Source: Octopus vulgaris
Lineage: Eukaryota
Direction of reading: 5' to 3'
Length of the DNA: 64,000 nt
Assembly (NCBI GenBank): GCA_951406725.2
Contig: OX597830.1
Coordinates: 48,298,001 to 48,362,000, forward strand
Every line of letters starts with the position of its first letter. Position 1 is the first letter of the stretch. The translations under genes were made by a program, and so were the position numbers. The notes beneath the pieces are model-generated. The model worked only from the letters and a program-made list of their open reading frames with translations. It made no database searches and had not been told where the DNA came from. Shown here piece by piece: positions 7,873-60,779 of this stretch.

Positions 7873-7903
7873 ATGTTGAGGAGGAATTATCTTCGAATTA
7901 TTT
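7873..7903 (+). CDS. PAN-domain gene copy A, coding exon 1 (MLRRNYLRII, start of signal peptide)
   Basis: ATG at 7873, 10 codons + 1 nt, then GTAAGT donor at 7904; conserved in copy B (43130); joins in frame to the next exon to give a basic N-region plus hydrophobic core. Confidence 0.8.
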
Positions 7904-11461: not shown

Positions 11462-11497
11462 TTCTCTTCTACATCTCACTGACATTTGGAAATGGAC
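11462..11497 (+). CDS. PAN-domain gene copy A, exon 2 (FLFYISLTFGNG, rest of signal peptide)
   Basis: tttcattgcAG acceptor, 36 nt, GTAAGT donor; phase 1-1; identical in copy B (47085-47120). Confidence 0.85.
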
Positions 11498-12055: not shown

Positions 12056-12313
12056 TTGAATATCTGAAGTATTTTATGAAAGTACCAAACTGTGCTCTGA
12101 AAGACGGTAAAACATTGATGACACTTGACCTGGACGCCTTCAACTGTTCGAAGAGTTGTTTTGAAACTTCTGCATGTAAATCCTTCGTGAGCAGAACGAT
12201 AAGTCCAAGCTGTATTTTATACGAAGAAGACTCAACAGAGAGGATGCTAATAAGTGAATATAATACCCATTTTTATCAGTTGAGAAGATCTGTGCCGACC
12301 AAGTATAGAGACG
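12056..12313 (+). CDS. PAN-domain gene copy A, exon 3 (PAN/apple-like domain 1)
   Basis: ttacAG acceptor, 258 nt, GTAAAC donor; encodes C-x3-C-x5-C-x-SF...C-x-L pattern (CSKSCFETSACKSF...SCILY) typical of PAN/apple domains. Confidence 0.9.
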
Positions 12314-16396: not shown

Positions 16397-19300
16397 CAGT
16401 AGTTTTATTTTAATAGCGTGCTTTCACTTCACTACCGAGCGCAGCTCTGTGTGCCTTGGGTATGTGCTGTGATTTGTTGTGATGCTCTGATGGTTATTGT
16501 ATGGAAAGTGTTCTGCGTAGGATGTGTGCAGTGCCTAGTAGTGCAATTTTCTGTATGTTATATGTGTTTGTAAGTCCTGGTGTTTTTGTTATGTATTTGT
16601 CTGAATATTTTTTTATCATGCCTAATGCACCTACTATGATAGGAATTGTTTCCGTTTTCAGATTCCACATTCTAGTTACCTCTATTTCCAGGTCTTTGTA
16701 TTTTGAGAGTTTCTCCATTTCTTTTAGAGACACGTTGTCATCTGCCGGTATTGATACATCAATTAGAAAGCTTTTTTTTTTCTTCATGATCTCTGACAAC
16801 TATATCTGGTCTGTTGGCCTTAATTATTCTATCTGTGTGTATCGGCATATCCCAGAGTATGCTTGCTTTCTCGTTTTCTGTGACCTTTTCTGGTGTGTGC
16901 CTATACCATCTTTTTACTGTTGTTATTCCATAATGTTGGCATAGCTTCCAGTGTATGTAGGTTCCAACTCTGTCATGTCTGTGAATATATTCCTTCTTAG
17001 CCAGGACTGGGCAGCTAGAGATAATATGATTTATTGTTTCTTGTCCATCTCCACATATTCTGCAGTTACTTGTAATATTTCTTTTCATTGCATGTTTTTG
17101 GTAATTTCTGGTGGGGAGGCTTTGGTCTTGTGCTGCAAGTAAGAATCCCTCTGTTTCTGCTTTGAGTCCTGAGCTTCTCAACCATTGCTGGGATTTTTCT
17201 TTGTCTATTTCTTTTGCGTTTAGTTTAGTGCAGTATTTACCATGAAGGGGCTATTCTTGCCATCGTTTTATCATGGTTCGTTGCTGTTCTATTTTTAGTT
17301 TGGATTTCATTTGTTTTATAGCTTTTGTTGTTTCTTCATCATCTCCTTCTTCTTCTTCGTGTTTATTAGGTGGTATGATTTCTTGTTTGTATTTGTCAGC
17401 TTCCTTAAATACTGAGAACAGTTTTTTGTTTTGCTCGTGTTTTGCTTCTATCTGGATCAGTTTTCCTTCCTTCTGAAGTAGGTATTTTTGCAGTCCTATG
17501 GTGGTTATTTTATAGTAGTTCTCCAGCTGTATAAGGCCTCTACCACCTTCTATACGTTGTATATATAGTCTTTCTATGTCAGATTTTGGGTGATGCATCC
17601 TAGATCCTGTCAGTATTTTTCTTGTTTTCCAATCTATTTTGGACAGTTCATTTCGTGTCCAGTTAAGGATATTGTAGCTGTAACTTATAACTGGGACAGC
17701 TAAAGTGTTGATACCTATTATCTTTTTTTTAGCATTGAGCTCTGTTTTTAGTATTGATCTAACTCGTCTATAATATTCTTTTTTTATTTTCTCTTTCATT
17801 TATGTGTGTTGTGTCTTATCTAGTTCATGGATTCCTAAGTATTTGTAAGTTTGGCTTTGGTCTAATTCTTTTATTTCATCGGTTTTATCTAGTGTGATGT
17901 TGCTACTCTTAACTAGTTTTCCTCTTTTCATGGTTACTTTGGCGCATTTTTCTAATCCAAATTTCATATCTATTTCTTTGGTAAATCCATGAACTGTCTT
18001 TAATAGTGTTTCCAGCTGTTTGTCATTATATAAAAGGTGGCTGATCGTTTTGCCGTAACATTTATATCCGCATCCAGTTCTATTTAGCATATCAGATAGA
18101 GGTGACAGTGCCAAGCAGAAAAGGAGTGGAGAGAGTGTGTCTCCTTGGAATATTCCTCTTCTGATGGGGATGTCTTTGGTTTTCATGAGTCCCTCTTTTG
18201 TTTGGAGGTGTAGGACTGTTTGCCATTTATTCATAGGGTGCTCTATGAATTTTATGATTGTTGGTGCTACTTTGTTAATGGCTAGTGTTTCAAGGATCCA
18301 CGTGTGGGGGATGCTATCAAACGCCTTTTTGTAGTCAATCCAGGCCATACTGAGGCCTTTCTTCTTTCTGTGGCTGTCTTCAGTTACGGCTTTATTAATC
18401 ATTAGTTGATCTTTACAGCCATATGAGCCTTTGCGGCATCCTTTCTGCTCTTCTGGGAACAGTTTGTTTTCGTCCAGTTGCTTGTTCAGCCTTTGCGATA
18501 TCACTGCAGTAAATGCCTTGAACATAGTAGGGAGGCAGGTTATTGGTCTGTAGTTTTCTGCTTTTGCTGTTTCATTTGATTTGGGAATTAAGATGGTTTT
18601 CCCCTTCGTGAGCCATTCAGGCATTGTCTCTGGCTCTGCTAGTATGCTGTTAAAGTTTTCAGCCAGCTTTTTGTGCATTCCTGTTAGATATTTCAACCAG
18701 AAGTTGGGGATCTTGTCATGCCCAGGTGCCTTCCAGTTGCTTAGTCTTTGCAGTGCCTGGGTGACCTCTTCAGTTGTTATGGGGGTCCAAAGTTGTTCAG
18801 ATGCCGAGTTTGTTATTTTGATACTCCTTTTTTTGGCTGTTCGTTCGCCGACCATATTTCTCTCCAGAATTCTTCCAATTCTTCTGCCGTTGGTGCTGCA
18901 GTGACTTCTATTTTATTTTTTCCCAGATCTTGGTAGAACTTTTTGGGGTTGGTGTTGAACTTTTTGTTCTGTTCAAAGAAGCGTTGGCGTTTCTCGTACC
19001 GGCGGATCCTTTGAGCTTTGGCAAGGATATCTTGCTTCAGCTTTTCTTTTATCTCCGGCAAATCATTTTCTGTGATGTTATATTTGCGGAGCATTTTTGT
19101 TCTCTTTTTGTTGCTCAGTAGCGTTGATTGTTTGCTGATTTCGTTAAGAATCGACAGGTCTTTTCTAATTTTTTTTATTTTGTTTTGGATGTTATTTATC
19201 CACAGGGTTTGTTTGGGTGGTGGTACTCCTGTTTGGGCGGGTTTGGGTGAGTATTCAGCTTCTTTTGTGGCTGCAGTGGCTGCTGCGTATATCAAGTCAT

Positions 19301-19517: not shown

Positions 19518-19520
<3 letters not shown>

Positions 19521-20303
19521 TAGTTTTATTTTTATAGCGTGCTTTCACTTCACTACCGAGCGCAGCTCTGTGTGCCTTGGGTATGTGCTGTGATTTGTTG
19601 TGATGCTCTGATGGTTATTGTATGGAAAGTGTTCTGCGTAGGATGTGTGCAGTGCCTAGTAGTGCAATTTTCTGTATGTTATATGTGTTTGTAAGTCCTG
19701 GTGTTTTTGTTATGTATTTGTCTGAATATTTTTTTATCATGCCTAATGCACCTACTATGATAGGAATTGTTTCCGTTTTCAGATTCCACATTCTAGTTAC
19801 CTCTATTTCCAGGTCTTTGTATTTTGAGATTTTCTCCATTTCTTTTAGAGACACGTTGTCATCTGCCGGTATTGATACATCAATTAGAAAGCATTTTTTT
19901 TCTTCATGATCTCTGACAACTATATCTGGTCTGTTGGCCTTAATTTCTCTATCTGTGTGTATCGGCATATCCCAGAGTATGGTTGCTTTCTCGTTTTCTG
20001 TGACCTTTTCTGGTGTGTGCCTATACCATCTTTTTCTCTGTTGTTATTCCATAATGTTGGCATAGCTTCCAGTGTATGTAGGTTCCAACTCTGTCATGTC
20101 TGTGAATATATTCCTTCTTAGCCAGGACTGGGCAGCTAGAGATAATATGATTTATTGTTTCTTGTCCATCTCCACATATTCTGCAGTTACTTGTAATATT
20201 TCTTTTCATTACATGTTTTTGGTAATTTCTGGTGGGGAGGCTTTGGTCTTGTGCTGCAATTAAAAATCCCTCTGTTTCTGCTTTGAGTCCTGAGCTTCTC
20301 AGC

Positions 20304-20305
<2 letters not shown>
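19518..20305 (-). mobile_element. Same LINE family, short 3' copy
   Basis: near-identical 3' end and RLE domain; flanked by (TAA)n. Confidence 0.9.
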
Positions 20306-20567: not shown

Positions 20568-21875
20568 GTTCTGTCGGTCAGTACCTATTTCTTTAATACC
20601 CACAAGCGGCTAAACATAGAGAGGACATACAAACGGATTAAGTCGATTATATCGACCCCAGTGCGTAACTGGTATTTAATTTATCTACCCCGAAAGGATG
20701 AAAGGCAAAGTCGACCTCGGCGGAATTTGAACTCAGAACGTAACGTTAGACAAAATACCTATTTCTTCACTACCCACAAGGGGCTAAACATAGAGGGGAC
20801 AAACAAGGTCAGACCTATGTATTAAGTCAATTACGTCGACCTCAGTGCGTAACTGGTACTTATTTAATTGACCCCGAAAGGATGAAAGGCAAAGTCGACC
20901 ACGGCAGAATTCGAACTCAGAACGTAACCGCAGCCGAAATACCTATTTCTTTACTACCCACAAGGGGCTAAACATAGAGGGGACAAAGAAGGACAGACAA
21001 ACGGATTAAGTCGATTACATCGACCTCAGTGCGTAACTGCTACTTATTTAATTGACTCCGAAAGGATGAAAGGCAAAGTCGACCACGGCAGAATTCGAAC
21101 TCAGAACGTAACCGCAGACGAAATACCTATTTCTTTACTACCCACAAGGGGCTAAACACAGAGGGGACAAAGAAGGACAGACAAACGGATTAAGTCGATT
21201 ATATCGACCCCAGTGCATAACTGGTACTTAGTTAATCGACCCCGAAAGGATGAAAGGCAAAGTCGACCTCGGCAGAATTTGAACTCAGAACGTAGTGGCA
21301 GACGAAATACCGCAAAGCATTTCGCCCGGCGTGCTAACGTTTCTGCCAACTCCCAGCTTTTCTGACGGTTAGTACCTATTTCTTTATTAACCACAAGGGG
21401 CTGAACATAGAGGGGACAAACATGGACAGACATAGGTATTAAGTCGATTATATCGACCCCAGTGCTTAACTGGTACTTAATTTATCGACCCCGAAAGGAT
21501 GAAAGGCAAAGTCGACCTCGGCGGAATTTGAACTCACAACGTAACGGCAGACGAAATACCGCGAAGCATTTCGCCCGACGTGCTAACGTTTCTGCCAACT
21601 CCCAGCTTTTCTGACGGTTAGTACCTATTTCTTTATTACCCACAAGGGGCTAAACACAGAGGGGACAAACAAGGACAGACATAGGTATTAAGTCGATTAC
21701 ATCGACCCCAGTGCGTAACTGGTACTTAATTTATCGACCCCGAAAGGATGAAAGGCAAAGTCGACCTCGGCGGAATTTGAACTCACAACGTAACGGCAGA
21801 CGAAATACCGCGAAGCATTTCGCCCGACGTGCTAACGTTTCTGCCAACTCCCAGCTTTTCTGACGGTTAGTACCT
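20568..21875 (-). repeat. Head-to-tail tandem array of six tRNA-derived SINE units
   Basis: units start about 20582, 20756, 20940, 21124, 21372, 21622; minus-strand B box gagttcaaattcc plus core gtcgactttgcctttcatcctttcggggtcg. Confidence 0.9.
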
Positions 21876-24868: not shown

Positions 24869-26496
24869 CAGTAGTTTTATTTTTATAGCGTGCTTTCACT
24901 TCACTACCGAGCGCAGCTCTGTGTGCCTTGGGTATGTGCTGTGATTTGTTGTGATGCTCTGATGGTTATTGTATGGAAAGTGTTCTGCGTAGGATGTGTG
25001 CAGTGCCTAGTAGTGCAATTTTCTGTATGTTATATGTGTTTGTAAGTCCTGGTGTTTTTGTTATGTATTTGTCTGAATATTTTTTTATCATGCCTAATGC
25101 ACCTACTATGATAGGAATTGTTTCCGTTTTCAGATTCCACATTCTAGTTACCTCTATTTCCAGGTCTTTGTATTTTGAGAGTTTCTCCATTTCTTTTAGA
25201 GACACGTTGTCATCTGCCGGTATTGATACATCAATTAGAAAGCTTTTTTTTTTCTTCATGATCTCTGACAACTATATCTGGTCTGTTGGCCTTAATTTTC
25301 TATCTGTGTGTATCGGCATATCCCAGAGTATGGTTGCTTTCTCGTTTTCTGTGACCTTTTCTGGTGTGTGCCTATACCATCTTTTTACTGTTGTTATTCC
25401 ATAATGTTGGCATAGCTTCCAGTGTATGTAGGTTCCAACTCTGTCATGTCTGTGAATATATTCCTTCTTAGCCAGGACTGGGCAGCTAGAGATAATATGA
25501 TTTATTGTTTCTTGTCCATCTCCACATATTCTGCAGTTACTTGTAATATTTCTTTTCATTACATGTTTTTGTTAATTTCTGGTGGGGAGGCTTTGGTCTT
25601 GTGCTGCAATTAAGAATCCCTCTGTTTCTGCTTTGAGTCCTGAGCTTCTCAACCATTGCTGGGATTTTTCTTTGTCTATTTCTTTTGCGTTTAGTTTAGT
25701 GCAGTATTTACCATGAAGGGGCTATTCTTGCCATCGTTTTATCATGGTTCGTTGCTGTTCTATTTTTAGTTTGGATTTCATTTGTTTTATAGCTTTTGTT
25801 GTTTCTTCATCATCTCCTTCTTCTTCTTCGTGTTTATTAGGTGGTATGATTTCTTGTTTGTATTTGTCAGCTTCCTTAAATACTGAGAACAGTTTTTTGT
25901 TTTGCTCGTGTTTTGCTTCTATCTGGATCAGTTTTCCTTCCTTCTGAAGTAGGTATTTTTGCAGTCCTATGGTGGTTATTTTATAGTAGTTCTCCAGCTG
26001 TATAAGGCCTCTACCACATTCTATACGTTGTATATATAGTCTTTCTATGTCAGATTTTGGGTGATGCATCCTAGATCCTGTCAGTATTTTTCTTGTTTTC
26101 CAATCTATTTTGGACAGTTCATTTCGTGTCCAGTTAAGGATATTGTAGCTGTAACTTATAACTGGGACAGCTAAAGTGTTGATACCTATTATCTTGTTTT
26201 TAGCATTGAGCTCTGTTTTTAGTATTGATCTAACTCGTCTATAATATTCTTTTTTTATTTTCTCTTTCATTTGTGTGTTGTGTCTTATCTAGTTCATGGA
26301 TTCCTAAGTATTTGTAAGTTTGGCTTTGGTCTAATTCTTTTATTTCATCGGTTTTATCTAGTGTGATGTTGCTACTCTTAACTAGTTTTCCTCTTTTCAT
26401 GGTTACTTTGGCGCATTTTTCTAATCCAAATTTCATATCTATTTCTTTGGTAAATCCATGAACTGTCTTTAATAGTGTTTCCAGCTGTTTGTCATT
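24869..26496 (-). mobile_element. R4/Dong-like LINE, 1.6 kb 3' copy
   Basis: near-identical to 16397-18027; flanked by (TAA)n, directly upstream of exon 4. Confidence 0.9.
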
Positions 26497-26699: not shown

Positions 26700-28503
26700 C
26701 AAAAATAATAAAACTATACAACGTGAAACAGTTCCACCACCATTACGAAAAACTACAAACACAACAGTGATTTATTTATTTTCTTCTTCTTACAGGAAGA
26801 TGTCCTTTTGATTTTATTGACCTTGCTGGTATACCTTCAGAGAATGATTTGGGTAGATTTAATGACTGCAGTTACACGCAATGTCTGCTTCATTGCGAAG
26901 CAAAACCAAATTGCCAATCGTTTGACTATAGCTATAATTACAAAAGATGCTACTTGTCAACTATAGATCATAGAACTGCTGAATTGCATTTTTACAAAAA
27001 TTACATTTACACCGAAATAAACAGAGGTAAGGGCGTCATTTTCTTGTTTTTATTTATTTATTTTGTTGGAATTATACACAGGCAGTTAGACAAGACTAAA
27101 TCACCACCTTCCAAAATGTGTTAGACTGTTATATTTGAGGCCAATGTCATATAAAGGTACGGACTCAATACCAAATTAGATAGACAGATAGATAGAAAGA
27201 TAGATAGATAGATAGATAGATACATACATACATACATACATACATACATACATACATACATACATAAATGCATACATACTCGCATACATATATAGATGCA
27301 CGCATACATGCATACATACATGCACGCACACACTCATACGTACAGATAACTACTAAATAATCGATGAATAAAAGGGACAAAGATAGCACCAAACCTCCGT
27401 GCTGCGATGGAAAATGTTGGCTCTGCTATACCAGTGTGGAAGATGTCACCCACATCATCAGTAGTTGCGACAAAATGCCTACGAGATTCTACCTGCCCCT
27501 GAGGCATGATATAGTTGCAAAGACTATTTACGATGCTACCCATAGGAAGGACTGCTCGGACGTATACATCGAAGCCATGTTAGAACCAGCAAGTAATCAG
27601 ACCTTTTGAAAGCAAGGAATACTGGTGGAACTCCCCGCAAAAACAAACATCAATTCGGTACAAATATAGCAGACCTGATATTGCTCTGTGGTACAGGGGA
27701 AAAAGTCATGCATTGTTGTAGGGGTCAGCTGCCCAGAGGATGTGAATGTGCAATCAAAAGTCTTAGGAAAATAGAACATTTATGGCAAACTTACAGTTCT
27801 TGTACCCTGACCATAAAGTCTCGTTTGCACCTTTCATCAGAAGTGCATTAGATTATGTACCAACAATTTTGCACATTTGCAGAAAAACCTATAAATACTC
27901 GGTTTCACAGAGAAAGAGCTAAAGAAAAACTGACGCGGATTGTCAAATTCCAATGTTTTAGTGGCACAGTGAAGATTTGTAAAACATTCCCAAACTATTC
28001 CATCTGTGATTCTTAGGTGAATAGATGCACACGATTGAGTGTATGCATCGACAGTCCCACGAACTCAACCACACATTTGCAATCACCGGGAACTCACTCA
28101 TCTCAAAAACTCTTGTCGCTTTCTTACCGACTGTATGTTTATTGCATTCAGATGGCAGGAATTTTCTCCATTCGCTTCTTGCGTTGAAAGACAATTTGAA
28201 ACAGCGAAGTGTGTACAGACACAAAAGTATGCTTCAAACTGCGGACAGGCCAATTCTTTTAATAGAACCTGTCTTGAAGTCCAAGAACCAAGTCAGATTA
28301 TATGCCTGGGGAGACGCTATTACCTTTACGACCCTGTCTCTTTAAATTATCATCAAAACCCAGCAGCAACCGGGATTCTTTATTGAGGAGTTGTGGAGTG
28401 AAACGATTTGGTACCAGACTTTCCTAGAGAAAGGGAATTCATCACCTTTAAGGGACTGCATCAATCCCTCAACAGTGATGATGTTGACTGCAAAGGAAGT
28501 CAT
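26700..28503. repeat. Segmental duplication block, paralogous to about 60455-62440
   Basis: shared exon 4, tetranucleotide repeats and LINE fragments. Confidence 0.95.
26796..27026 (+). CDS. PAN-domain gene copy A, exon 4 (PAN/apple-like domain 2)
   Basis: ttcttcttcttacAG acceptor, 231 nt, GTAAGG donor; CLLHCEAKPNCQSFDY...RCYLS motif; phase 1-1, in frame with exon 3. Confidence 0.9.
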
Positions 28504-28870
28504 TTGGAAAGCAATTTTATATTTACTGATGTAACAATTTTCAGTGTCGATGATCCCTGCCTTTGTGTGTTTCATTTTGTTTTTGTATATTCCACTCTGG
28601 GCTGTTTTTCTCTGCTTCGCTACAGTACTGGCAACTGGAAATTGATGAAGCCACTCCCACACTTTCTTCGGGACAAGTGTCACTCTTAGGAGGGAAAGCT
28701 CTGTGCACTGTCAAAATGTTTCTGGTCTTGGTATTCTTCATTTCTCTCCTTTGCCATTTTATAATTCCCACTCCATACCGAAGTGATGCTATCGCTCACT
28801 TATCGACTGCTTGGATTTTATTCTATCCAGTCAATTTTGAGCGCAACACCAACCTCAGTCGTCTGACATA
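27360..28870. mobile_element. Old RLE-LINE fragments in both orientations (paralog 61290-62440)
   Basis: EDVTHIISSC...RHD zinc-finger remnant on +, RT thumb remnants on -. Confidence 0.6.
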
Positions 28871-30442: not shown

Positions 30443-32337
30443 CACCATTATTATTATTGTTATCATTATTATTGATTTTGATATTTTAGAAGGACTAACG
30501 AACCTCTTCACAAAGATAAATAGACAATACGAAAAGCATTTCGTCCGGCGTGCTAACGATTCGGCTAGTCCGCCGCTTTAGCATTGCAGACAACATATTA
30601 AAATTAATTCCGATCGATTCTACACGCTTCTCTGAGCTGTTCCAGAAAAAAAATCATTTTTTCCAACTCCAATGCGGACTAATTATATTTGTAAGACATA
30701 TACACCGGACTCCTTACCAAGAATCGAAACCTCGGTCTTCACGCTTGTTTATATTGTTCTCGTCATTTGTGTTTATAATTCATTCGTTTTACCTATTTAC
30801 TTCGCCACCATTTTAGATGAGACAGGGTTTAATCTTGTTAACCCATTTCGTTCTATTGTCAATGGTCTGACTTCACTTTAGCACTGCAATAAATTCGAGA
30901 TACCAAGAGAAAAATATTATCTTTCCTCTGCAACTTCCAAACAGTTAACTATGGCACATTCCCGCGAGCTTTGCCCAATTTATCCCCTTCAAGTTAGGGT
31001 TCACTATTAACAACTACCATGGTAATAGATTATCCATCAAAACTAACTAAATTTTGTGTTTACTTCCCACTCGTCGCAGTTGCAGAACCGCGTAAGTAAA
31101 ATCTACAGTAAGTGTGAAATACCTTTCAGCAGTTCTTTGCAGTGCATCCAGAAATGTTATCTAAGCAATGCACAGTCTTTCGCCAACTTGTCACATCTCT
31201 ATGTGTTAAAAACAACTTGCTACATCGTGCCTGTAACGCCTTTCCCGTTACAATTATACTGTTATACATATAAAGACATGTTTGAAGTACATTTCGAAAG
31301 TATCTAGGATCTTTATAAACGTCTGTCCCTTCATATCTGAGGCCTTGTGTTATTACTAGAAATAACTGATAGTAAATAAAACTCAACATATATTAAAGAA
31401 GTAATGATTTCTTGTATAAAATCGTCTTATATAAATAGGGAAGTCGATTGTATTAAGGAGATTAGGATTTCTTGATTAATATTAAAGAAATCACGAAAGA
31501 TATTAAGACGATCAGAAGAATAAGAAACAATTTTTATTCCATTTCAGAACTTTGGAACGATTTCAAACAGTCAAATACACTGGACAAGATTAACTCTGTG
31601 GGATGTGGTATAATATTTTTCGACTCTTATTATTTCCTTGACAGTAAGACCCTCTTTTTGTTCATTTTTTTGTGTTTTTCGTTTCTGTTTCTGGTTTCTA
31701 ATCTTTATTAACTTGATCTCTAGTTCTTGCCACATTCATTGATCTCTAGTTCTTGCCACAAAAATTTAAAAAATAAATAAATATCTCATTCTCCTACATC
31801 AAATGAGTATTTCTACTTAGAAACTTAATTCTTAATTAAATATATTAACAGTAAATTGATGATTAATATTCATTCAAAAGGATGTTGTAAAACAACCCAC
31901 AAATACATTTAAAATCTGGCAGATGGATTAATATTAATCTCCGTTGTCATTAAAATTCTCAACACGCTTCCTTACTAATCTGCAAAGAAATACCTCAATA
32001 CATCTCGCCGGTAATACGAGAACCATTCTCCCTCCGAGATACCCATCAACATACCCCTTCTCATTATCCCGTCATACATGCTATTACAGCAACCAGATCA
32101 CATCCCGCATCAATTATTAATCCCAGTCCTTCCTTTCTAGATTATACAACATTCAGGTACTCACTCCCTACTCACACTAACCTAAAGATGTCTAAACGGA
32201 ACATGAATACAATCGATCTATCGAATCAATAGGCCCTATCTATTCGTTTCCTTTGTACTTTGTCAGATTAGAGCAATAATTTAAGTTATGCTCTTATATT
32301 TATTGTTTCCTCTTTCCATTTTTTTTTTCTATTGCAG

Positions 32338-32528
32338 AAAAAGAAACTAATGATTTGACAGCTTATTCAACATTTTCCTTCAAACAAAATCCAAATCTCT
32401 ACCTTATAACAGAGGCCCAAATGGATGCTCACTCGGTTCTGGATTGTTCCCGTTTATGTATGATATCTTCTACATGTACTGCCTTTTCATATACTAACAC
32501 TAAGTGCCTACTAAAGAAACTGAGCTGA
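32338..32528 (+). CDS. PAN-domain gene copy A, terminal exon 5a (PAN-like domain 3, ends KKLS*)
   Basis: polypyrimidine + attgcAG acceptor; phase 1; EKETNDL...SVLDCSRLCMISSTCTAFSYTNTKCLLKKLS-TGA; absent from ORF track. Confidence 0.8.
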
Positions 32529-32968
32529 ACTTTAATTGAATTCACCCCAAACTTACTTACTTGTCCATGAATTGTGAGCAAGACTTCAACGGATCACGTT
32601 TGCTAACCTATTTTGCTTATTTTTTTGTGTCCTTTTTCCTTTTTCTTGTTTCTCATCTTTAATTCATTGATCTTCTGTCTCCATTTCTTGTCGAAAAAAT
32701 AAGAGAAATTAATGTCGCTCTCTTCTTCATCGCATTATTTCTTCTACTTAGAGTCCTAATTCTTAGTTAAATATATTTACAGTAAATTTATAATTCCTCT
32801 CCCCGAGATACTCAGCCACATGCCCCTTCTCCCGTCATACATGCTATTACACCAATCTGATCACATCCCGCATCAATTATTATCCCCAATCCTTCCTTTC
32901 TAGATTTTACAACACTCAGGATCTAACTCCATACTCGCACTACTCTAAAGATGTCCAAACGGAACATT

Positions 32969-32974
32969 AATAAA
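32969..32974 (+). terminator. Candidate polyadenylation signal for terminal exon 5a
   Basis: AATAAA between the 5a stop and the 5b acceptor; the equivalent position in the upstream repeat unit is not AATAAA. Confidence 0.35.
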
Positions 32975-33097
32975 ATCGATCTATCGAATCAATAGTCCAT
33001 ATCCATTCGTTTCCCTTGTACCTTTCAATGAAGAGCAATAATTTCATTTATGTTGTTATATTTCTTGTGCTTTCTCTTGCTTTTTTTTCTATTGCAG

Positions 33098-33288
33098 AAA
33101 AAGTAATTAATGATTTGACAGCTTATTCAAATTATTCCTTCAAACAAAATCCATATCACAATCTTATTACCGAGACCCAAATGCATGCTCACTCGGTTCT
33201 GGATTGTTCCCGTTTATGTTTGATATCTTCTACATGTACCGCCTTTTCATATACTAACACTAAGTGCCTACTAAAGAAACTGATCTGA
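33098..33288 (+). CDS. PAN-domain gene copy A, duplicated terminal exon 5b (PAN-like domain 3, ends KKLI*)
   Basis: same acceptor context; EKVINDL...SVLDCSRLCLISSTCTAFSYTNTKCLLKKLI-TGA; AATAAA at 33400. Confidence 0.8.
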
Positions 33289-33399
33289 ACTTTAATGGAA
33301 TTCACCCAAACATTACTTCTCCATAAATTGTGAGCAAATCTTCAACGGATCACGTTTGCTAATAATAATTATATAAGATAAAATGTGTGTTTCTTTGTG

Positions 33400-39149: not shown

Positions 39150-39372
39150 TATATTGGTTTCGAATTGTGGCACAATCCCAGAAATTTCGGAGGAGGAGGA
39201 GGTAAATCGACTACATGAACCCCCGTGTTCAAATGGAACTTAATTTATCGATTCACAAAAACGATAAATGCCGAAGTCGACCTTGGTGGAATTTGAACTC
39301 AGAACGTAGAGACGAACGAAATGCCGCGAAGTATTTTGTCCATCACACTACCGACTCTGCCAGATCGTCACC
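39150..39372 (-). mobile_element. Single diverged SINE copy (same family as the 20.6-21.9 kb array)
   Basis: gtcgaccttggtggaatttgaactcagaacg core. Confidence 0.7.
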
Positions 39373-43129: not shown

Positions 43130-43160
43130 ATGTTGAGGAGGAATTATCTTCAAATTATTT
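43130..43160 (+). CDS. PAN-domain gene copy B, coding exon 1 (MLRRNYLQII)
   Basis: paralog of 7873-7903 with GTAAGT donor at 43161. Confidence 0.8.
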
Positions 43161-47084: not shown

Positions 47085-47120
47085 TTCTCTTCTACATCTC
47101 ACTGACATTTGGAAATGGAC
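47085..47120 (+). CDS. PAN-domain gene copy B, exon 2
   Basis: ttgcAG acceptor, 36 nt identical to copy A exon 2, GTAAGT donor. Confidence 0.85.
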
Positions 47121-47676: not shown

Positions 47677-47934
47677 TTGAATATCTGAAGTATTTTATGA
47701 AAGTACCAGACGCCGGTCTGAAAGATGCCAAAACATTGATGACACTTGACGTGGATGCCTTCATCTGTTCGAAGAGTTGTTTTGAAACTTCTGCATGTAA
47801 ATCCTTCGTGAGCAGAACGATAAGTCCAAGCTGTATTTTATACGAAGAAGACTCAACAGAGAGGATGCTAATAAGAGAATATAATACCCATTTTTATCAG
47901 TTGAGAAGATCTGTGCCGACCAAGTATAGAGACG
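47677..47934 (+). CDS. PAN-domain gene copy B, exon 3 (PAN domain 1)
   Basis: ttacAG / GTAAAC splice sites, 258 nt open frame, 7 aa differences from copy A. Confidence 0.9.
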
Positions 47935-57219: not shown

Positions 57220-57540
57220 TGTCTTTTTCCTTTATATCGTGGTGTTTGCTTCCATCTACCTCTAGTATTCACAGGTATTTGTAGCTGGATTGAACTTGAA
57301 TAGCCTTCATCATTTCCCTTCTGTCCTGTTTTTCCTTTATATCGTGGTGTTTGATTCCATCTACCTCTAGTATTCACAGGTATTTGTAGCTGGATTGAAC
57401 TTGAATAGCCTTCATCATTTCCCTTCTGTCCTGTTTTTCCTTTATATCGTGGTGTTTGCTTCCATCTACCTCTAGTATTCACAGGTATTTGTAGCTGGAT
57501 TGAACTTGAATAGCCTTCATCATTTCCCTTCTGTCCTGAC
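57220..57540. repeat. 3 x 108 bp tandem repeat inside a minus-strand LINE remnant
   Basis: three near-identical units ttttcctttatatcgtggtgtttg...tcatttcccttctgtcctg. Confidence 0.9.
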
Positions 57541-60548: not shown

Positions 60549-60779
60549 GAAGATGTCCTTTGGATTTGATTTACAAAACTGTTCTAAGTTCAAACAATCA
60601 GTTGGGTATCTTTTATGTTTCTAATTACAAACAATGTCTGCATGAATGCAAAGTAAAACCAAATTGCCGGTCGTTTGACTATAACGTTAATAAGAAACAA
60701 TGCCAGTTGTCAACTAAAGATCATACAATATTTCAGTTGCGTTTTCAAAAGAATTACATTTACACCGAAATAAACAGAG
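60549..60779 (+). CDS. PAN-domain gene copy B, exon 4 (PAN domain 2); terminal exon expected beyond window
   Basis: tcttacAG / GTAAGG splice sites, 231 nt open frame, CLHECKVKPNCRSFDY...QCQLS. Confidence 0.9.

Follow-up and report, generated by a model that had tools for sequence, protein, structure and literature searches.

Secreted recognition repertoires in which a conserved frame carries a variable binding region and gene conversion is at work are represented by the gastropod FREPs, the amphioxus VCBPs and the sea urchin SpTransformer proteins, all of them built from domains other than PAN; an immune lectin of the FREP type, for example, combines Ig with fibrinogen domains. Among proteins that do use the PAN/apple fold, plasminogen, HGF, factor XI and prekallikrein are single conserved genes. 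Their PAN/apple domains show the highest structural similarity to the second PAN domain (PAN2) of the octopus proteins considered here (Z 9.4-12.4 at 13-15% identity), but the octopus proteins have neither the kringle nor the protease domain of plasminogen, HGF and factor XI, their 843-nt frame stopping after a third PAN domain. Two leech proteins, LAPP (Z 8.3) and saratin (Z 4.8), which block collagen-platelet adhesion, are small secreted PAN-fold proteins like PAN2, although they are single-domain salivary proteins with 11-14% identity to it (14% for LAPP). The best sequence-profile matches of the octopus family in the PDB are TgMIC4 (E 7.7e-7) and Sarcocystis SML-2 (E 1.4e-5), secreted proteins with tandem apple domains that share their fold with PAN2; these are parasite adhesins, whereas the octopus family consists of animal host genes. 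To our knowledge, few diversified recognition families have been found in cephalopods outside the nervous system.

The window analysed here is a stretch of 64,000 nt of Octopus vulgaris DNA (G000:C17:48298001-48362000) from the 2.8-Gb genome that was searched. It contains gene A, complete, and the first four exons of gene B; gene A exon 4, the starting point of this study, is part of an octopus family, still uncharacterised, with about 25 secreted proteins of three domains each. The features of the window are as follows.

7873..7903, plus strand: gene A exon 1, with the ATG and the first 10 signal-peptide codons and a GT donor; it resembles the N-termini of the homologs P0001 and P0019.
11462..11497, plus strand: gene A exon 2, the remainder of the 22-aa signal peptide, nearly invariant in the family.
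12056..12313, plus strand: gene A exon 3, PAN domain 1 (Pfam PAN_1, 23.6 bits); the exon 3-4 junction is found in run X2.
26796..27026, plus strand: gene A exon 4, PAN domain 2, the hypervariable, positively selected domain.
31548..31643, plus strand: gene A exon 5, a conserved linker of 96 nt; the exon 4-5 junction is found in run X1.
32338..32528, plus strand: gene A exon 6, a short conserved PAN domain 3 (Pfam PAN_1, 24.9 bits) and the stop codon.
33098..33288, plus strand: second, tandem copy of exon 6 whose frame is open, possibly an alternative last exon.
43130..43160, plus strand: gene B exon 1.
47085..47120, plus strand: gene B exon 2.
47677..47934, plus strand: gene B exon 3, PAN domain 1.
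60549..60779, plus strand: gene B exon 4, PAN domain 2, from Pfam PAN_1 and alignment to gene A exon 4.

The six exons of gene A join into an 843-nt frame that encodes 280 aa and has no stop inside it. Its product starts with a signal peptide of 22 aa, as judged from the sequence, followed by PAN1, PAN2, a linker and the short PAN3. No membrane anchor is seen in it, and together with the signal peptide this suggests that the protein would be secreted. Exon 4 has AG/GT ends and phase 1 in both genes and scores 34.8 and 42.6 bits on the PAN_1 profile; the Pfam cut-off of 21.4 for the PAN/apple domain (PF00024) is likewise exceeded by exons 3 and 6. Matches on these three exons are to the PAN clan alone, the Ig plus fibrinogen combination of the FREP type being absent from them. 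Exons 5 and 6 were located as the sole downstream stretch common to 16 of the 20 loci, and those of gene B lie outside the window, at L071:3144-3239 and from L071:3746. In a contig from run X1, exon 4 continues into the start of exon 5, and in one from run X2 the end of exon 3 directly precedes exon 4; the gene is therefore spliced as modelled across exons 3, 4 and 5, runs X1 and X2 being only guessed to be RNA and having a depth under 5. At that depth, comparison of gene A with the X2 contig shows 5 differences in 223 nt, which change 4 residues and include no synonymous one. Position 24 of PAN2 is Cys in gene A and Tyr in runs X2 and X3. An alternative exon 5, at 28039-28386 or from 28155 onward, was rejected, as it lacks conservation in distant paralogs and X1 joins exon 4 to 31548.

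Several repeated stretches accompany the two genes. Exon 6 and its upstream intron are tandemly duplicated (32028-32606 and 32797-33362, 86%), the second copy being open, and the gene of L003 has the same exon 6 duplicate (L098). Intron 3 of gene A holds near-identical (98-99%) LINE-like copies bearing reverse transcriptase at 16397-18024, 19518-20304 and 24869-26493, an identity that indicates recent insertion or local duplication; one of them ends near exon 4. A tandem array of a 180-250-nt repeat with units 80-94% identical occupies 20569-21875, with an extra copy at 39203-39362, and a 105-nt unit is repeated three times, nearly perfectly, at 57224-57538 within a LINE-like stretch of gene B intron 3.

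In this assembly, exon 4 gives 32 matches, of which 26 are close and lie on C17; exon 3 gives 28, with 25 such matches, and exon 6 gives 30. The copies on C17 form four clusters, at 44.8, 47.9-48.4, 57.0-57.2 and 68.7 Mb, and exons 3 and 6 accompany 25 of the 26 copies of exon 4. As proteins, the 26 PAN2 sequences all differ from one another and none has a stop, and frames, splice sites and core Cys are preserved in nearly all copies; mean amino acid identity over 25 genes amounts to 50% for exon 4, compared with 83% for exon 6 and 78% for exon 3. A few copies look damaged or odd, as fits birth-and-death evolution: exon 4 at L109:3995-4160 has an internal deletion, L122 (the gene of L007) a non-canonical exon-1 donor and L008 an in-frame 15-nt deletion, L017 is missing the helix Cys, and L020 is an orphan exon 4. 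Exon 1 was not found for two copies within the stretches searched, and no exon 4 accompanies the exon 6 matches at C17:68.67 Mb and 79.24 Mb. Uncollapsed haplotypes are an unlikely origin for most sister pairs, L007/L009 aside, because exon-4 sisters have different nearest neighbours in exon 3.

Only 4 proteins among 1.84 billion representatives fall below 1e-10, all of them from Octopus, and the wider matches, 8 of 18 of which were looked up, are from Octopus and Argonauta in all but one record; the family appears to be octopod-specific. Proteins of the same family and architecture are found in O. sinensis (XP_036366248.1, P0019, of 280 aa; XP_036366256.1, P0022; XP_036354797.1, P0023), O. 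bimaculoides (XP_014769852.1, P0001), O. vulgaris (CAI9735246.1, P0002) and Argonauta (GAB1605676.1, P0010), full-length homologs measuring 276-282 aa. Several are near-identical to copies in C17; all are automatic annotations only, and every named one is called uncharacterised. The O. vulgaris protein models seen are few and partial or chimeric (P0002, P0042), so that expression studies may have missed the family. A homolog search with exon 4 gave no match among longer proteins. The same animals have a distant three-PAN family (P0039, P0020; O. sinensis, O. bimaculoides), whose PAN2 is 21% identical to that of gene A; weak exon-3 matches at C17:26.4-26.7 Mb (L056-L058) may belong to it, and further PAN-domain exons, 31-33% identical, lie on other chromosomes (L027-L030 on C10 and C13). 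While both the domain and the evolutionary pattern are already known, the literature searched offers no account of the family or of what it does: among papers outside subscription, none came up for six of its accessions or for PAN or apple domains in connection with octopuses or cephalopods, nor did that search yield any description of function, copy number or selection for the octopod relatives. In PMC7656900, the Pfam heat maps of Fig. 1 include a 'PAN domain' row.

From a comparison of genes A and B by eye, the first-pass annotation had described exon 4 as hypervariable with almost no synonymous change, as more diverged than its introns and as a product of diversifying selection. Its counts are reproduced here: the two exons (26796-27026 and 60549-60779) align without gaps and differ at 53 of 231 nt and in the residue encoded by 33 of 76 whole codons, with a single synonymous difference in the 43 conserved-residue codons (codon 67, AAA/AAG), whereas the signal exons are 1 aa apart and exon 3 differs at 7 of 85 aa and 12 of 258 nt. 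The downstream intron does have an identity of about 88-92% (13 differences in 112 nt within its first 120 nt; 92.3% over 27323-28531), and the exon is more diverged than that intron, but the upstream 100 nt differ at 19 of 99 positions, nearly the level of the exon itself, and relative to both flanks combined the excess is modest (23% vs 15% divergence, Fisher p=0.04). Moreover, counting synonymous changes in conserved codons only understates dS; NG86 yields a dS of 0.20 and a dN of 0.30, and maximum likelihood a dS of 0.23 and a dN of 0.32, a dN/dS of 1.38 that does not differ significantly from 1 (LRT 0.45). The A/B pair by itself does not prove selection, and diversifying selection on PAN2 is a conclusion that holds across the whole family rather than one that can be drawn from these two genes. 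The near absence of synonymous change, for its part, is confined to the A/B pair: over the 66 pairs that 12 neighbouring cluster genes form, the conserved codons of exon 4 show a synonymous divergence of 0.107, a level matched in nearby introns, and in the light of that family value the single change in 27 sites seen between A and B is a low draw.

The family-wide evidence comes from our own GY-type site models (F3x4, with M0 branch lengths and a scale factor, and naive empirical Bayes; not codeml). For exon 4 of the 14 cluster genes, mean dN/dS is 1.165, M2a places 23% of sites at 4.0 (2dlnL 34.0) and M8 vs M8a gives 33.2; with all paralogs, 26 copies, 22% of codons fall at a dN/dS of 3.6 (2dlnL 101). 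Between roughly a fifth and a third of PAN2 codons have a dN/dS in excess of 1, and this class is robust to recombination and multi-nucleotide change, 2dlnL being 26.8 (14 genes) and 73.7 (26 copies) when double-nucleotide changes are allowed and 30.7 and 25.0 when two or three segments are given separate trees. The signal is weaker in domain 1 and absent from domain 3. In exon 3, 16-17% of sites fall at 4.3-6.3 (2dlnL 28 and 56), and 2dlnL goes down to 11.4 with separate trees per segment, so that part of the exon 3 signal is conversion; this exon is homogenised between neighbour genes and has a few selected sites. Exon 6 of the cluster genes has a dN/dS of 0.40-0.47 and no selected class (2dlnL 0.06).

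These results must be weighed against an account without adaptation, whereby exon 4 is simply relaxed and older, nearby repeats block its conversion and recombination inflates the site tests. Exon-4 flanks do exceed the 5' half of the gene in divergence (0.107 vs 0.03), the homology of A and B upstream of exon 4 stops about 120 nt from the exon, the exon trees are incompatible, and about half of the PAN2 codons fit a dN/dS near 1, from which it follows that relaxed constraint accounts for much of the divergence. Neutral simulations, 33 in number (9 without, 8 with light and 16 with heavy conversion), reached a maximum 2dlnL of 28.1 under heavy conversion, in one simulation, and of 10.2 without conversion; nominal p-values are therefore too small, as this high tail makes clear. 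None of the 33, however, attained 34, nor did mean dN/dS go beyond 0.77 in any of them, staying below 1 throughout, compared with 1.165 observed. Selection is further upheld by the split trees and by seven independent sister pairs chosen from the tree (14 of the 26 copies), in which at most 6 of 55 changes are synonymous, compared with a neutral share of 0.219 taken from the model (p=0.029). For the 12 core genes, that is, with the two that carry an old exon-4 lineage left out, tree dN and dS are 1.22 and 0.63 in exon 4 (flanks 0.41-0.45), 0.28 and 0.65 in exon 6, and 0.35 and 0.18 in exon 3. It follows that the dS of exon 4 is ordinary, that its dN is about twice dS, and that it is the 5' half of the gene that is unusually homogenised; exon-4 dN is also about 2.7 times the flank tree length. 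Since frames, splice sites and core Cys are, in addition, intact in nearly all copies, we regard the purely neutral account as improbable and the evolutionary part of our model, selection on PAN2 included, as well supported.

The genealogies of the exons are mosaic. In AU tests, the tree of each of exons 3, 4 and 6 is rejected for the other two exons, and the tree of the exon-4 flanks tracks that of exon 4 with shorter branches. Gene B, for instance, is nearest to L007/L009 in exon 3 (2.0%) but to L010 in exon 4 (2.2%), and L024 combines an exon 6 that lies within 3.3% of that of gene A with an exon 4 from a distant lineage. The idea that exon 4 is a conversion tract from a distant paralog, which had been named as a potential refutation of selection, is borne out to the extent that exon 4 and its flanks are older than exon 3 by tree dS (0.63 vs 0.18) and by the AU tests, but it leaves a dN that is still about twice dS. 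A protein of O. bimaculoides retains a PAN2 of the L023 type (19 of 75 differences), and PAN2 lineages are therefore old; the PAN2 of 4 of 8 O. sinensis proteins lies at 0-1 aa from the closest C17 copy and that of the others at 3, 3, 5 and 7, which means that change is episodic and no constant arms race. Gene conversion evens out the frame, whereas exon 4 retains older lineages, and diversification is episodic and linked to duplication.

The AlphaFold model of PAN2 (pLDDT 90.2) adopts the canonical PAN fold, a helix packed on an antiparallel sheet, and superimposes on the plasminogen PAN domain with a Z of 12.4 (rmsd 1.9, 75 aligned), followed by HGF (11.9), MIC4-A5 (9.6), kallikrein (9.6) and SML-2 (9.2). 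Core Cys C33, C39 and C51 occur in 26 of 26 copies and C29 in 25. Cys2 of exon 4 is invariant and the Cys of exon 5 is present in all 20 copies extracted, and the two probably close the outer apple disulfide; the full-length model, which is poor (pLDDT 38.7), gives a hint that a strand from exon 5 might complete PAN3. The PAN2 sites with a posterior above 0.95 (14, 15, 20, 32, 45, 48, 50, 52, 61, 62, 64, 66 and 69) alternate with the conserved F42, Y44, C51, L53 and L63, a periodicity suggesting that they lie on the sheet face directed away from the helix and in the adjoining loops, where they would form one surface. The variable sites are not confined to loops, as first interpreted, many of them alternating along beta-strands. 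Among the cluster genes, PAN2 has a net charge anywhere between -4 and +10: L010 and L011 are strongly basic (+10 and +7) and may bind polyanions, and the other 12 lie between -4 and +2. PAN1, in turn, has an extra Cys at exon 3 codon 12 in 20 of 25 genes, without an obvious partner, which may form covalent dimers.

K469 of MIC4 is reported to be required for sugar binding (PMC6608980). The lysine column in the SML-2/MIC4 alignments is PAN2 column 54, adjoining the selected sites 52 and 45, and the most variable PAN2 sites flank the position of the MIC4-type sugar pocket. Column 54 we take to be MIC4 K469, with an offset in numbering, and columns 45 and 52 presumably correspond to N460 and Y467 and to their roles. 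Whereas MIC4 and SML-2 have a Lys three residues past the last core Cys, PAN2 has Ser in 24 of 26 copies and Val in 2; given the Ser at column 54, PAN2 is not a MIC4-type lectin. PAN3 does have Lys at the lectin-lysine position in 25 of 25 genes; such a Lys is common in apple domains and hence not diagnostic.

We consider it likely, with a probability of roughly 0.65, that this octopod tandem family of secreted, soluble three-PAN proteins is a repertoire of binding proteins, in which the PAN2 surface would bind a ligand, be it glycan or protein. The signal peptide, PAN3 and most of PAN1 would make up a common frame, kept alike by gene conversion between neighbours, and PAN2, encoded nearly wholly by one phase-1/phase-1 exon, would act as the specificity module. 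After duplication, selection would favour new residues within a single exposed region of PAN2; exon 4, together with some 100 nt of flanking sequence to either side, would escape homogenisation or else be swapped as a cassette. Each gene would then provide a soluble protein with the shared frame and a PAN2 face of its own, the genes together covering a range of ligands. The stricter version, a soluble PAN-fold recognition repertoire whose specificity exon is exchanged as a cassette among otherwise homogenised genes, is put forward tentatively.

As to the setting in which such a repertoire might operate, recognition of microbes or foreign surfaces in a secretion is our first guess, though one held at less than even odds. 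A reproductive recognition or coating protein, as in egg jelly, oviducal gland or spermatophore fluid, driven by sexual selection or by defence of brooded eggs, would leave the same evolutionary signature; recognition proteins with PAN domains do exist, the plant receptor complex 5gyy (Z 7.5) being one, and the family was not found in the ink and skin-mucus proteome supplements searched. Gamete-recognition genes, however, usually diverge fast between species, whereas O. sinensis proteins match several of the PAN2 copies exactly or almost exactly; we hold this setting somewhat less probable than the first. The negatives for skin mucus (PMC10138644) and for the searched part of the ink supplement (PMC10142993) are weak, and neither the readable part of PMC9712504 nor PMC9068888 contained a family match. 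By analogy with LAPP and saratin, the proteins might instead be salivary or venom components whose PAN2 face adapts to prey targets: they are small, secreted, Cys-rich tandem duplicates with a conserved signal and a variable mature region, and they share the fold of the leech proteins. Identity to LAPP is only 14%, however, and neither motifs nor identifiers of the family occur in the O. vulgaris posterior salivary gland proteome supplement (PMC7693380), a weak and database-dependent negative; we deem such a function unlikely, marginally more so than a reproductive one. A setting other than the microbial, reproductive and salivary or venom ones is, as a guess, about as unlikely as venom.

The combination of selection and conversion in secreted tandem families is well known. 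The octopus family, on our favoured reading as a repertoire of binding proteins, offers some 25 natural variants of a protein whose frame is nearly constant and whose candidate for specificity is contained in one 76-codon exon, so that the question of the ligand becomes directly testable. The family could offer a lead on recognition in octopuses, be it of microbes, the surfaces of prey, mates or self. If the repertoire reading is true, it would constitute a cephalopod counterpart of the diversified immune receptors of invertebrates or, alternatively, an individual-specific chemical identity signal, in which copy number and the set of PAN2 domains would vary between individuals.
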